From contig NW_026889782.1 of assembly GCF_033153115.1 (NCBI RefSeq), positions 5,952,001 through 6,016,000 of the forward strand: a stretch of DNA of 64,000 nucleotides. The letters run 5' to 3'. Source of the stretch: Saccostrea echinata (Eukaryota). The translations under genes were made by a program, and so were the position numbers. Shown one piece after another: positions 28,081-58,715 of this stretch (positions are counted from its first letter, which is position 1; every line of letters starts with the position of its first letter). The notes beneath the pieces are model-generated. The model was not told the DNA's origin. It ran no database searches and saw only the letters and a list, made by a program, of their open reading frames with translations.

Positions 28081-28423
28081 ATGACTAAGGCTAATTTCAT
28101 ACTTTGGACTTTAAGCCCTCTCACTATGCTAGGATGCAACATCCATCTGATACTGTGCTCTGTGTTGACTTGGACAAAGGCTACCCTCTTCCAGACATAC
28201 TATATTGCGGATACTGACTTAGACGACAAAGTATTGTTTTATTCTCTTCTATCAGTACATGAGTCTGACTCTCTAACTTTATGTTCCACCAGGTGTGGTG
28301 GAGACTGTAATTGTCTTGGCTACAACTCCTTGAGAAAGAGATGTTGTCTTTATAAATCATGTGATTCTGGGAATATAACAGATTATGAAGCTGGGTGGAC
28401 GTATTACAAATCAGTGTTGAAAG
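28081..28423 (+). CDS. Lectin gene 1, exon 1: hydrophobic leader + PAN/apple-like Cys domain
   Basis: ATG at 28081; SLTLCSTRCGGDCNCLGYN...CCLY...EAGWTYY; donor AG|GTACG in phase 1. The four exons join to 750 nt (249 aa + stop). Confidence 0.8.
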
Positions 28424-28885
28424 GTACGAAACATTTATAGAAAAAAAATGCTATCACTCCTAAATTGCTTTCCCACAGAAGTCCTATTTAGAACTTATAA
28501 AAGATAGTTTTTGAATTCAATATACCGCATTGTCAAATTTGTTAAAACGAATTTATAATATTATAAAACAATTTTGGAATTTGTGATAATGAATTGATTC
28601 TTTATGATAAATGTGTTCAATTCGTTTTCACGAGAGAAAAGAATCTGCTGATGGATGTAAATAAATGCACTGATGTTATGTATATAAAACAGTCTTAAGT
28701 ATAGTATTTACAGTGACTTTGTTTCAACGTGTACAATCATAATTTGGGAGAAAAAAAATTTTTCCAATCCCAATCTACAGATTTATTTTATCGTAAAACA
28801 AATTTCTTTCATCTTTACATACGTAGATAATAGAAAAATGAATTTTTGAATATTCACTACAAACCAAAGCATGTGATTTTTATAG

Positions 28886-28959
28886 GAGAGGGATGGTTGT
28901 TGTACAGAACACATTATTACTTACTTATCAAGAATAGGAACACATGGCAGAATGCAAAG
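28886..28959 (+). CDS. Lectin gene 1, exon 2 (start of the C-type lectin domain)
   Basis: tag|GA..AAG|gtaag; GEGWLLYRTHYYLLIKNRNTWQNAK; paralogous to 46952-47025. Confidence 0.9.
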
Positions 28960-29626
28960 GTAAGAATTATATGTCTGTTATGTTATATATGCATTAAGCA
29001 TCGTGACATGAACGTATGCATGTGGCTCTTGGGGCCATAAAACAAGAGGCAGGATCACTCAGTTGATCTTTCATGAACATCATTTATTCTAATTTGAAAC
29101 CTTTCAAAGGAGCATGATTTACATACATGTAAACCACCACCACCACCGTTGCAAGGGCCCCTCGCTTTGGTAGGAGACTCAGTCTCCTCTCTAATATATT
29201 CTCTCTCAGTCAAATTAAGAACATAATGCAGAAGATAGGATTGATCAAATGGCTATATTGGAAAAATGAAGGTCATATAAATTCATGGAATTAATAATTG
29301 TAATAAACCCAAATGTAATTACCTTTCAAATAAAATCTCTTGCAATCGTTCATGACAGTCCTTTATATCTAGATTTAATGACAAGTGGAATATGTTTTTG
29401 GTCACCATGGTATATTTTCAGACATTATGTAAATTTTCAGGCTTTGCTTGGTATAATTTATTCAGTTAATAATTCACAATGCTGTAATTTTCTTGTCTGT
29501 ATAGTCTTGTTTTATTTATATCCAATCTATTTATAATGATGACGGGGAAACTTTTACAGATTATTATATAAAAATACAGTTTCTTAATCATAAGACAGGT
29601 AGAACGCTTTTTGCATATTTTTGTGC

Positions 29627-29766
29627 NNNNNNNNNNNNNNNNNNNNNNNNNNNNNNNNNNNNNNNNNNNNNNNNNNNNNNNNNNNNNNNNNNNNNNNNNN
29701 NNNNNNNNNNNNNNNNNNNNNNNNNNNNNNNNNNNNNNNNNNNNNNNNNNNNNNNNNNNNNNNNNN
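29627..29766. other. Assembly gap (140 N)
   Basis: Run of N. Confidence 1.
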
Positions 29767-29795
29767 AATATATATTACATTGAAACTTTTTTCAG

Positions 29796-54849: not shown

Positions 54850-54920
54850 TTTTTATCCCTTGAAAACCATTGTTGACCCAGGCGCAGCCGGGCAAAAAAG
54901 GTTTCCAATGGATAAAAATT
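54850..54920. repeat. Short imperfect palindrome
   Basis: atttttatcc..tgaaaacc...caggcgcagccggg...ggtttcca..ggataaaaat. Confidence 0.6.
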
Positions 54921-56556
54921 TCACGTCACTTTATTTAAAAAAAAATGTAATATTTTTTAAATGTATCTAGAATGCATTTAGAGGAAAATAAGGTGCAATG
55001 TACACGCAAAGATTCTGCGAACTTCTTAATTTTTATACTGTTGCATTTTAAACCGTTGCTACGTTATGTTACCTAGACGGCGTGGTTTATGTACAGTAAG
55101 ATACTAGCACTTTTTATCAAATACTTTTAAACAAATTAAATTGACTATTTAACACGAAAGTATAACAATTATATGACATTACAATACTTCCTTGAAATAA
55201 TTACTTGAATTGTTCTCTTTTATTTGCTTGCATTTTTACTTACTGCTTTTAACTTCGGATTTTTTTTTATCAAAACGAATAAAATTACTGTTTTTCAATA
55301 CTTTGTATCCATGGTAATGTATGTAATATTTTTTTCCAAATATTTTTGTCATTACAAGACAATATAAGACTTTGGCTCCGATCTAGAAACATCCCATTTC
55401 CTTTTTTCAATGTTGCTCAAATCTAGAGAATGACTCTGAAAGTGTTCCAATTGCTATTGTTCATGGAAACACCTCTAGTACCAATCTCCTTAAAACGGTG
55501 CTAAAATAAGTGCCACCTCAGGCATTTTACTATTGCAAAAATCAACGCATAAGCAATTGGTAAATGGAAAAAATTCCGCAGGGAGATATATGGTTTTAAA
55601 GAATGTGTTAAAAATATTTTTAAAGTTTTTTTAAAATTAAGATTAAAAACTTCAATTACGTACTGTCTAAATAACTCCATTTGAATGAATTATATGTCTA
55701 AGCATGACGCAGCACTTGTACAAATAATACAGCCATTATAGAGAAAAAGCTCAATATTGACATTTTTTATATATGAGGCTTGTTACTGTTCACAAAAACA
55801 CTTGGAAGCAAAAAATTGCTTGAATGATACAGCCCAAAATCAGGATCCGGAAATGAGAGCATGGATCGAAATATTTAACTCTACCAATTTTCTACTATAA
55901 AATCAAATCCTATACACTCAATCCCATAAATGATGTACCCTTGCTGTAAATTACATTTTGTCAAAGCAAATGTATAATTGATGGTTTGTTTACACATTTC
56001 ATTAAATACTGTAAGCTTAATCCTATCACTACATAGCATGTTTAATTATATTCTGTTTGGAACCAGCAGAGAAACAACCCATCATTCGCATTCTTGTGAT
56101 AAAAAATAATAAAAGGTTAATGTTGTATAAAAAAAAACTCTACAGAAATTTTATGATAAATTTGAATATACATATCTATGCATGCCACAGCTCTGATATA
56201 CTTGTATGCATAAGCATATTTGTAGAGTTCTTTAAAAGTTCTTTAAAAGACTGTTTTTATGTATTTTGTTGACAAACTGTGTTCCATACATTTTTTGTGT
56301 TTATGAATATATATCTTATTTTAAGTGTGTAACGCACACTAATATTAAAAAATATTATTTCTATTCTAGTAAACAAATAAAATGAAAATAAGCATATTGC
56401 ACATTTAGGATTTTCCTATATATTGTAATCACAAACAGGGTTCCATATATTTTTTATGTCCATGAAGCTAGTTTTTATGTCTTGTACGTGTAAATGGAAT
56501 ATTTAAACAAAGAATAATTATTCCTTTTAAAACGAAAGTAAAAATTGTACTATTAA

Positions 56557-57479
56557 GGAGGGATTCTTGTCCGGTTTCTGACTAGATGAAATATTCAAAG
56601 GATATTTGCTTATATGTTTTATATAGTTAGATGTAAGAGATTTAAAAGATCATATTTTTCTTTCCTCATCACAATTGTACAACTTTCAATAGAAATGGTA
56701 AACTGAGTTTGAAATCTAGCCGGGACAATATTTTTGGCGGAATGGCGGAGTATGAAAATATCTTCTTTTCTGCATCTCAAAATAATTATAGAACAATGAT
56801 TCAGTTATAATTTTTACACAATCAAAGACTTGGAGAAATTTTTTAAATGTAAGTTAAATTAATAATAAAGGATTAAAGTTTTAAAATATATCAAATAAAT
56901 ATGATTTTCCAAACAAACTACAATTATGTTAGCTTTTAAAAGCTTCCTATCTAAGTTCATATTTGAGCCAAAAATCCGTAAAAAGTGTTTTTTCTCTCTT
57001 AGTAAACGGTCAAAACTTTTTCTTTTTATATCTTTTTGTATATTTATGTGACAACTTTACCATATGTGAAAATAAGAAAAATTAAATATAGGAAGCATAT
57101 AAAAATAACTAAAATATCTTAAAATTTTAAGAAAAATAGAGAAAATTCGGATTAGCCAATATTCATTTTAGTTAAGTTATTTATGTCAATTTGGTAATAT
57201 CATCTTATAGACCCTATATGGTAATATCTCTTTATGCAAAAAGAAAAACATTTAATTTATTGAAATAGAAGTAGGCATTGCATGATTGGGAACAGTAATT
57301 TTTTATTCTTAATGTCCAGGGAAAAGGTACTGACCTTGACCTGACCTTGCCTCTAATATAAAACGGTCAAATTCAATCTAACTGATACCATCACTTAGTG
57401 ATATTGTCTTCTTGATTCTGTGAAAATTTCATTGATTTTTAAATATAAAAATAACTGTTCTTATGAGAAGAATCCCTCC
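56557..57479. mobile_element. Kolobok-like non-autonomous element
   Basis: Ends read ttaa|ggagggattctt ... aagaatccctcc|ttaa: 12-bp TIR, TTAA TSD, RR...YY termini. Confidence 0.85.
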
Positions 57480-58479
57480 TTAATGATACTGTTATTTGTA
57501 AGCACAATGAAATCACCCAAACCCATGCCAACTGGGCCTAACCTTTAGTAGAGATGGTAGTGTTTGGAAATTAGACCTTTTTTTGAAAATCAAAATTTAT
57601 AGTTTTTTATTTCATTATGATTGAAAAAAAAATAGAACAGCAACTTCCAATACTAAATGGATGTTCTTTACATGTTGTCTACCACATTGAAAAAGGACGA
57701 TGTGCAAATGGGTCATTCTAAATTAATTGTGATCCCCTAATTTTAATTTTTCGATTTTCCTGGGGTTTTTTGTTTGATAAGAAAACATCATTATGAATCT
57801 GAGTTTTAAACATACGTTGTAAGTTTTATTCAGTTTAAAACAAAATTATATTGTGAAACAGAATAATTGTGTACATCTGTAAGTGTTGACCTTAAGGTCA
57901 TTGTACACATAATAATTTAGTCAGAACGCTATAAAATAATTTTGAGGTGTACTGTAGGCAATTCTGAAGTAAGAAAATATACTGAGCTTTGATTGTACAC
58001 TATAAGTAAATACCTTTTTATTTATTTCCCGTGCAACTATGGCTTCTTGAATACTAAGCAGAAAATTCAATCATTTAGTTGGATACGCAGACAGTATTTT
58101 CCTTGTATTTTTTGTAGCAAAACAATGATGTCACTTTTTTTATCGTGAAAAAAATTCTGTTAGATTACATAAGAGGGGGGATGGGATTGGGGTGCTTGGA
58201 ACGGTTCATATGGATGATAATAAGCGTCCCATTCTCAGGTTCCATTGCTTCTATTTTTCGGAAATGTAAAAGTATTAGTACTTTAAACGGTATCTAAATA
58301 ACATTCAAAGCAAAAATATTTTTATGATTTTGAAAGGTCTTTTTATTCAGCAATTGCACCACGTTCATTTCTATTCCTTTTTATACTGATAGGGTTCTAT
58401 TATAAATCTGCTGGATATATATTGTTTCACTTCTGCTAATTTTTTATTTTATATCTCATTTGATATCTGCATTTTTCAG

Positions 58480-58715
58480 CGCAATGTATGAGGTGGTGGG
58501 ATTGTTGTTCACATTGGATTGGTGCAAACGATATTGCCCAGGAGGGGAGATTCGTCTGGACAGAAAACAATCGTGACGTCACTTCCTACTCCAACTGGCA
58601 TCCCATAGAGCCTGATGACGTCGGCGGACAGGATTGTGTCCAAATATGTCGTGAAGGGGTTTGGGGGGATACCCCGTGTGGCGAAGTGTATTCATACATT
58701 TGTGAAAAAGATTAA
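58480..58715 (+). CDS. Lectin gene 2, exon 4 (CTLD C-terminal half, perlucin-like)
   Basis: tttcag| acceptor; 236 bp, as in gene 1; WIGAND, EPD, WGD, YICEKD*. Confidence 0.93.

Follow-up and report, generated by a model that had tools for sequence, protein, structure and literature searches.

Layered divergence in two tandem PAN/apple and C-type lectin genes of Saccostrea, probably produced by repeated non-allelic exchange of their 3′ parts

The DNA analysed here, a 64-kb stretch of contig NW_026889782.1 (the window), contains two same-strand genes of four exons each, gene 1 and gene 2, both intact and with reading frames open to the stop codon. Each encodes a protein with a signal-peptide-like N-terminus, a PAN/apple domain and a C-type lectin domain (CTLD). 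We think it rather probable that the two are old tandem paralogs of a mollusc PAN/apple plus C-type lectin family whose 3′ parts have been exchanged repeatedly by non-allelic gene conversion. Gene 2 would then be a mosaic, with an old PAN exon under purifying selection followed by lectin exons that went through two or more rounds of exchange with gene 1. Overall this is real but ordinary non-allelic recombination between tandem lectin paralogs, not a new diversity-generating system.

Results

Gene 1 begins with an exon at 28081..28423 (both genes and their flanks are on the + strand) that encodes the signal-peptide-like N-terminus and the PAN/apple domain and ends in phase 1. Its lectin domain begins in exon 2 (28886..28959, 74 bp) and runs through exon 3 (29796..29892, 97 bp), in which codon 29802-29804 specifies Tyr in place of the first conserved lectin Cys, to exon 4 (31930..32165, 236 bp), which carries WIG, EPD and WGD motifs and the stop codon. 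The first exon of gene 2 (41529..41820), encoding a hydrophobic N-terminus and a divergent PAN/apple domain with four Cys, likewise ends in phase 1 and is followed by exon 2 (46952..47025, 74 bp), exon 3 (49386..49482, 97 bp), in which the first lectin Cys is retained, and exon 4 (58480..58715, 236 bp), with the same three motifs and a stop codon. All six introns are GT-AG, and their phases are 1/0/1 in each gene. A preliminary description of this DNA had correctly given exons 2-4 the same sizes and phases in both genes; identity of phase was discarded as evidence of exon shuffling, being expected of any paralog pair. Translation of gene 1 probably starts at the second ATG (28126), since that ATG aligns with the start of its relatives. 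The best 10-residue hydropathy at the N-terminus is 2.2 for gene 1 and 2.0 for gene 2, and both products are predicted to be secreted. A six-frame profile scan found no further PAN or lectin exons in the 64 kb, the next PAN score having an E-value of 0.034 over 31 residues; the two PAN exons in the window each have their own exons 2-4 and stop codon.

Divergence between the two genes changes sharply from segment to segment. Exons 2, 3 and 4 differ at 10/74, 7/97 and 18/236 nucleotides, respectively. A codon model with a shared kappa, applied to 69, 24, 32 and 78 codons of exons 1-4, gave synonymous divergences (dS) of 2.13, 0.41, 0.10 and 0.12 and ratios of nonsynonymous (dN) to synonymous divergence (omega) of 0.29, 0.25, 0.69 and 0.59; fourfold sites differed at 6/9, 1/3, 1/12 and 1/25 positions. 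Uniform synonymous divergence, set beforehand as the outcome that would speak against different histories of the exons, was rejected (p 2.5e-9), as was equality of exons 1 and 2 (p 0.010), supporting the earlier proposal that the exons have different histories. An exon-1 dS fixed at an intron-like 0.25 was rejected at p 4e-11, and one fixed at 1.0 at p 0.026.

The non-coding DNA is similarly uneven. Six alignable intron segments beside exons 2-4 differ at 111/540 sites (21%, or 18-26% per segment), against 68 mismatches in 1274 aligned nt (5.3% divergence, 94.7% identity) in the proximal 3′ flank, a contrast with p 4e-21. This proximal flank, the first 1.3 kb, is the young exchanged tract at 32166..33441 of gene 1, and its counterpart lies within the homologous 3′ flank of gene 2 (58716..61996). 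Farther out, the flank of unit 1 (33446..38334) has patchy homology to 60392-61996 at 8-9% divergence, with 100/1063 sites differing (9.4%, 90.6% identity) over the outer blocks, and homology stops at 38334. The flank had previously been called nearly identical, which holds for its proximal part but not for its outer part. Divergence that is uneven along neutral parts of a duplicated block, as gene conversion leads one to expect, is thus present, and its levels form two or more layers.

On the 5′ side, homology between the genes begins abruptly 79 nt upstream of exon 2 (28807 in gene 1, 46874 in gene 2). All five intron ends touching exons 2-4 align between the genes, and the 5′ end of intron 1 gave no alignment above chance (47/100 shuffles were as good). 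A dispersed repeat (46601..46876, unstranded) sits on this edge, so the edge need not be a crossover point. The promoter regions also gave no alignment above chance, with 42/100 shuffles scoring as high. They had been described as unrelated; the absence of alignment stands, but a second dispersed repeat (27238-28024), directly upstream of gene 1, adjoins the gene and leaves little native promoter for comparison.

Seven of the 18 differences in exon 4 fall in nt 1-14 and are followed by 77 identical nt, much as first reported (about 75). The cluster is denser than chance allows (0.0011, counting every 14-nt window); the identical run is not longer than chance allows when the cluster is left out of account (0.096), and was dropped as evidence on its own. 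The cluster had been taken as a conversion or recombination breakpoint, but a breakpoint at nt 14 is doubtful: the first five codons of exon 4 are a hypervariable spot across the family, and one residue within them is common to genes 1 and 2 against S. echinata and 5/5 other relatives. The young tract starts somewhere between the end of intron 3, where 13/57 sites differ, and nt 15 of exon 4. Beyond the first five codons exon 4 has a dN of 0.049, against 0.055 for the neutral flank. Each of the 10 amino-acid differences in the exon falls in a column that varies among seven relatives (26/68 other columns vary). Since omega is 0.6-0.7, amino-acid divergence is near neutral and every exon-4 difference lies in a variable column, the lectin exons are, to judge from their sequence, young rather than constrained or constant.

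In Pfam, both first exons match no families but PAN, each below the curated cut-off: gene 1 scored 13.1 bits against PAN_2 (cut-off 21.1) and gene 2 scored 15.2 bits against PAN_1 (cut-off 21.4). The fold was assessed on a predicted model of gene 2 exon 1 (mean predicted local distance difference test score, pLDDT, 70), for which the best structural match was the PAN/apple fold of 4a5t (Z 8.8, root-mean-square deviation 2.6, 73 residues aligned), followed by the HGF N-domain (Z 8.1-8.3), leech anti-platelet protein (Z 8.1) and apple domains (Z 7.4-7.9). Foldseek returned plasminogen and HGF, with a best E-value of 2.3e-3 (plasminogen) and nothing at or below 1e-3, and the first ESM Atlas matches were PAN_1 clusters at 0.94. 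The structural matches and Atlas clusters support the original assignment of exon 1 to the PAN/apple domain. A four-Cys PAN core aligns in both genes and 11 relatives; over 21 sequences three of these Cys are invariant and one is nearly so. As had been noticed, the two exon-1 proteins share little (22/75 residues identical in the PAN core), yet their homology is real, with a local score of 124 reached by 0/2000 shuffles. The gene 1 core is identical to that of S. echinata XP_061167260 at 62/75 positions. Gene 1 carries an additional PAN Cys. Gene 2 has the four core Cys and neither Cys of an extra pair that occurs in gene-1-type exons and in three listed Magallana or Logan relatives; the absence of the whole pair fits a folded, selected domain. 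A longer relative of gene 2 exon 1 was found in 0/36 candidates at E ≤ 0.01, which is weak evidence, and 0/596 pattern matches in JGI metagenome contigs were confirmed.

The lectin part is more readily recognized, with Lectin_C scores for exon 4 of 40.3 bits (gene 1) and 39.6 bits (gene 2) against a cut-off of 22.6, and with a model of the relative P0158 matching CD23 and other carbohydrate-recognition domains at E about 1e-10, indicating the CTLD fold. EPD and WGD motifs are present in both lectin domains. According to the sections of PMC12842671 used here, EPD is associated with the binding of mannose by scallop lectins and WGD is found in CvML3912, and calcium-dependent sugar binding is accordingly a prediction for these domains, as is the ligand. 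Gene 2 contains all four conserved lectin Cys and retains all 8 lectin Cys. The first conserved Cys, replaced by Tyr in gene 1, is invariant in 24/24 relatives, and the Tyr may be an allele or an assembly error. Gene 1 also has no AATAAA at the position where gene 2 has one (58772), its later polyadenylation motifs lying at 32563 and 32834. Because the first lectin Cys is lost, the PAN domain has an additional Cys, a proximal AATAAA is missing and a repeat lies next to the start, gene 1 may be decaying; alternatively, these differences may be allelic or assembly-derived. Most Magallana and Crassostrea relatives keep the N-terminal long-form pair of lectin Cys; both are lost from exon 2 (28886-28959 and 46952-47025) in the Saccostrea subgroup.

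Mollusc proteins matching both PAN_1 and Lectin_C, annotated as 'perlucin-like', 'lectin BRA-3-like' or 'CD209-like', have the same architecture and Cys framework as genes 1 and 2. They include S. echinata XP_061167260, S. cucullata XP_062616801, XP_062598929 and XP_062616819, and more distant relatives from Magallana and Crassostrea. Among 24 aligned relatives, all match Lectin_C and 11 match PAN_1 at E ≤ 0.1, and the two domains also occur together in ESM Atlas clusters of 88, 73 and 326 members, mostly from molluscs. Compared with these proteins, gene 1 is without the first lectin Cys and gene 2 has a PAN exon for which no close relative was found. The closest matches of exon 4 are XP_061167260 (90%) and the S. 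cucullata proteins (69-72%). Relatives were compared as proteins, in PAN trees of 17 rows (4/21 rows have no PAN part) and lectin trees of 21 rows; several of the NCBI gene models look partly mis-spliced, and from a 50%-representative search dominated by multi-lectin proteins 10/149 new rows, the short ones, were taken in. Where exons 3 and 4 meet, XP_061167260 (P0001) carries 21 additional residues that occur in no other relative and represent an added exon or a gene-model error. P0158, an unbroken frame of 232 aa on a Logan contig of 1,952 nt, covers the equivalents of all four exons, a hint that PAN and lectin exons are joined by splicing in a transcript of a relative.

Gene 2 stood apart in every comparison of its two domains. 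Its PAN core is 29-37% identical to those of seven other close sequences and its exons 3 and 4 are 70-89% identical (all Fisher p ≤ 1e-5), whereas neither gene 1 nor S. echinata, in 11 comparisons with other relatives, shows a difference in identity between the PAN and lectin parts (p 0.29-1.0); for this reason gene 2, and not gene 1, is regarded as the mosaic. All six other close relatives that have an exon 1 have one of the gene-1 type, and only gene 2 deviates. The lectin tree unites S. echinata with genes 1 and 2 in one clade (support 97/94), and placing gene 2 outside the Saccostrea set was rejected by the approximately unbiased (AU) test (p-AU 0.038). In the PAN tree, placing it outside the Saccostrea group was not rejected (p-AU 0.40). 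Topological conflict in the PAN tree was discarded as an argument, the AU tests not being significant, as was conflict in the lectin tree for the S. cucullata set, whose clade was not rejected (p-AU 0.149). Synonymous divergence and the divergence of the flanks, rather than tree shape, are therefore what speaks for an old exon 1. At all five amino-acid differences between the genes in exon 2, S. echinata sides with gene 1 (5:0); in exons 3-4 the sides split 5:6, with three matching neither, and three residues are common to genes 1 and 2 alone. This pattern points to a separation of exon 2 before, and an exchange of exons 3-4 around or after, the split from S. echinata.

Paralogs of the S. cucullata type show the reverse of genes 1 and 2, the PAN exon being the more alike part: for P0002 and P0004 identity is 70/75 in the PAN core and 72/96 in the lectin part (Fisher p 0.0017), and 3/10 pairs fall under 0.05, uncorrected. 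P0002, P0004 and P0019/P0156, all from S. cucullata, are each listed with a 153,120-nt contig and probably stand in tandem, as a cluster belonging to the family of genes 1 and 2; their PAN exons are nearly identical and their lectin exons more divergent. The preliminary description had proposed a modular system in which variable first exons are combined with homogenised, constant lectin exons. That proposal did not hold up: the window has only two PAN exons, each with its own exons 2-4, the six other close relatives with an exon 1 are all of the gene-1 type, the S. cucullata paralogs are reversed, and the lectin exons evolve near neutrality.

The window also contains repeats and mobile elements. 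A dispersed family of about 200 bp has at least 8 copies on both strands (4068-4209, 16433-16634, 26725-27000, 33018-33173, 46601-46876, 49695-49929, 59570-59707 and 61536-61773), and one copy lies within the young exchanged flank of both genes. Intron 2 of gene 1 holds the only N run of the window, an assembly gap of 140 N at 29627-29766 that ends 29 nt before exon 3, and intron 3 holds a 30-bp satellite (29982-30902, about 31 copies at 90%), absent from gene 2, that yields long repetitive open frames. About 400 bp upstream of the gene 2 start is an imperfect 181-bp palindrome (40941-41121, 83%) resembling a miniature inverted-repeat transposable element. Tandem arrays with units of 168, 166 and 119 bp occur at 21593-22535, 48656-49065 and 37420-37885, respectively; the 166-168-bp type is reminiscent of the Helitron-associated satellites of oysters. 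A Helitron-type element at 4407-11825 (+) has an uninterrupted frame of 2472 aa with a Herpes_teg_N-like region, DUF6570, Helitron_like_N, a PIF1 helicase and a C-terminal endonuclease/exonuclease/phosphatase domain, and this intact-looking element is possibly young.

Discussion

Under the gene conversion reading, exon 1 would have been the first part to leave the exchange, having escaped at the edge of the exchanged block; its dS of about 2 and omega of 0.3 would mark it as old yet still subject to purifying selection. For exon 2 and the introns, at about 21% non-coding divergence, the last common ancestry would date from before the split from S. echinata, and exon 4 with the proximal 3′ flank, perhaps also exon 3, would have been exchanged at about the time of that split or later (5-10%). 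Most likely each gene has its own transcript, spliced separately and encoding a two-domain protein, in which the lectin domain would bind sugar with calcium and the PAN domain would add a second binding surface, so that the two products would be similar lectin heads with different PAN modules.

Several observations weigh against this history. The interval of the exon-1 dS is 0.056-10 with kappa unbounded and 1.26-8.4 at kappa 2, that of exon 3 (0.017-0.32) overlaps the intron level, and the alignable intron pieces are a biased sample. Repeats lie next to gene 1 and on the edge of the gene 2 homology, so that the missing flank homology is partly a matter of insertions. Relatives were compared only as proteins, and the candidate and metagenome searches found no ortholog of gene 2. 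In the lectin trees the pairing of genes 1 and 2 as sisters has support of only 92/82 and 74/71, and the AU test did not reject a grouping of gene 1 with S. echinata (p-AU 0.126 and 0.257). The PAN tree has gene 2 within the Saccostrea group at the end of a very long branch (2.15, compared with 0.21 for gene 1), and a clade of genes 1 and 2 was not rejected (p-AU 0.11 and 0.10).

A possible, though less likely, history is a chimera made in one step, in which an unequal crossover of the anti-Lepore type or a partial duplication with its breakpoint in intron 1 set exons 2-4 and the flank of gene 1 downstream of an older paralog's promoter and PAN exon, and later conversion refreshed only exon 4 and the flank. 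The homology does have a sharp start, 79 nt before exon 2, and divergence over the six intron segments varies rather little (18-26%); S. echinata, S. cucullata and a Logan sequence all combine the gene-1-type exon 1 with these lectin exons, so that pairing looks ancestral; and the resulting order, A-X followed by B-X′, is that produced by such a crossover in the part of PMC4041002 drawn on here. However, the spacer at 38335-41528 should then recur behind gene 2, and 61997-64000, the 2 kb up to the window end, contains no match to it; the homology edge coincides with a repeat insertion; and the searches turned up no parent in which a gene-2-type exon 1 precedes a different lectin (0/36 candidates, 0/596 metagenome matches). 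Simple duplication of the whole gene, with very fast evolution of gene 2 exon 1 under positive or relaxed selection and no exchange of that exon at any time, is improbable. Maximum likelihood places gene 2 on its long branch at the crown of the Saccostrea PAN group, with the gene 1 and gene 2 clade not rejected, and gene 2 has motifs in common with S. cucullata exons, as this history would have it; but synonymous sites of exon 1 are near saturation at omega 0.3, and forcing an intron-level dS raises omega to 3.1 with a far worse fit. The donor side of intron 1 is unalignable while all other intron ends align, and the contrast between flank and introns would still require later exchange.

That the locus works as a combinatorial system, with exon 1 of gene 1 also spliced to the lectin exons of gene 2 and variable first exons sharing lectin exons, seems quite improbable. 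The matching phases would give an in-frame transcript, the genes are on the same strand with 18.5 kb from the gene 1 donor to the exon 2 acceptor of gene 2, and read-through could be useful to a gene 1 that has no proximal AATAAA and whose lectin is without a conserved Cys. Equal phases are nevertheless the default for paralogs, the 64 kb contain only two PAN exons, each with complete downstream exons and a stop codon, and such splicing must skip exons 2-4 of gene 1, the polyadenylation motifs at 32563 and 32834, and exon 1 of gene 2. In the clustered protocadherins and UGT1A, many first exons share one set of constant exons; the present genes resemble those loci in that the first exon is divergent, codes for an entire domain and ends in a common phase, but differ in that each first exon owns a full set of downstream exons. 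Least probable of all is that assembly placed two divergent haplotypes of a single locus one after the other; exon 1 would then be an ancient balanced polymorphism, and divergence would decay downstream of it. Oysters are highly heterozygous, and divergence drops from exon 1 toward the 3′ flank, but there is no gap between the units (the only N run is at 29627-29766), and farther out divergence climbs again from 5% to 9%, with kilobase-size indels.

Gene conversion of this kind has precedents. In tandem duplicates of Drosophila, the sections of Osada and Innan 2008 (PMC2588116) consulted describe non-allelic gene conversion with decay at block edges and local divergence peaks. The oyster pair resembles what those sections describe in its patchy, layered paralog divergence and in having one block end that escaped homogenisation, but differs from their divergence peak in that the divergent exon lies at the block edge and is not flanked on both sides by converted DNA. 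Homogenised DNA on both sides of a divergent region, which the Teshima-Innan criterion calls for, was not found here, the upstream DNA and 5′ intron 1 being unalignable; a divergent exon 1 at the block edge fits edge decay, and no claim to a signature of selection is made. The anti-Lepore HBB/HBD fusions are chimeric duplicates made by unequal crossover (PMC4041002; PMC3449122). As far as the excerpts of those papers go, genes 1 and 2 are similar in that a 5′ part from one paralog is joined to a 3′ part from another within a tandem cluster, but differ in that neither the second parent nor the duplicated spacer is seen within the window.

Bivalve lectin families have expanded with varied domain combinations (PMC10140915, as excerpted), although the main text of that paper, in the form available here, contains no occurrence of 'apple' and none of 'PAN' as a domain; PAN/apple domains are noted in few mollusc genes in the portion of PMC7588048 used. 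No paper on mollusc PAN and C-type lectin genes or their recombination was found in a search whose scope was set without supplements, such as the domain tables of PMC10140915, which could list the architecture. The combination is thus common among mollusc database entries and little described; the process that shaped the present pair is well known. More tentatively, and in our view rather unlikely, intron 1 may be a recurring exchange point across a large mollusc PAN and C-type lectin family, with modules re-paired repeatedly and new pairings selected since they change cross-linking, and with read-through from gene 1 exon 1 able to rescue the Cys-deficient lectin. The examples would be two PAN types on one lectin lineage here and one PAN lineage on several old lectin lineages in S. 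cucullata.

The gene pair illustrates clearly how members of an expanded bivalve lectin family evolve as mosaics. It also cautions that whole-gene trees, like automatic names of the 'perlucin-like' kind, conceal the PAN domain and mixed ancestry, and it makes the PAN plus C-type lectin family a reasonable target for a small study. Re-pairing at intron 1, if recurrent and selected, would offer a testable mechanism for diversifying the innate recognition proteins of bivalves, and would amount to a germ-line, exon-level combinatorial route to recognition diversity in these animals.

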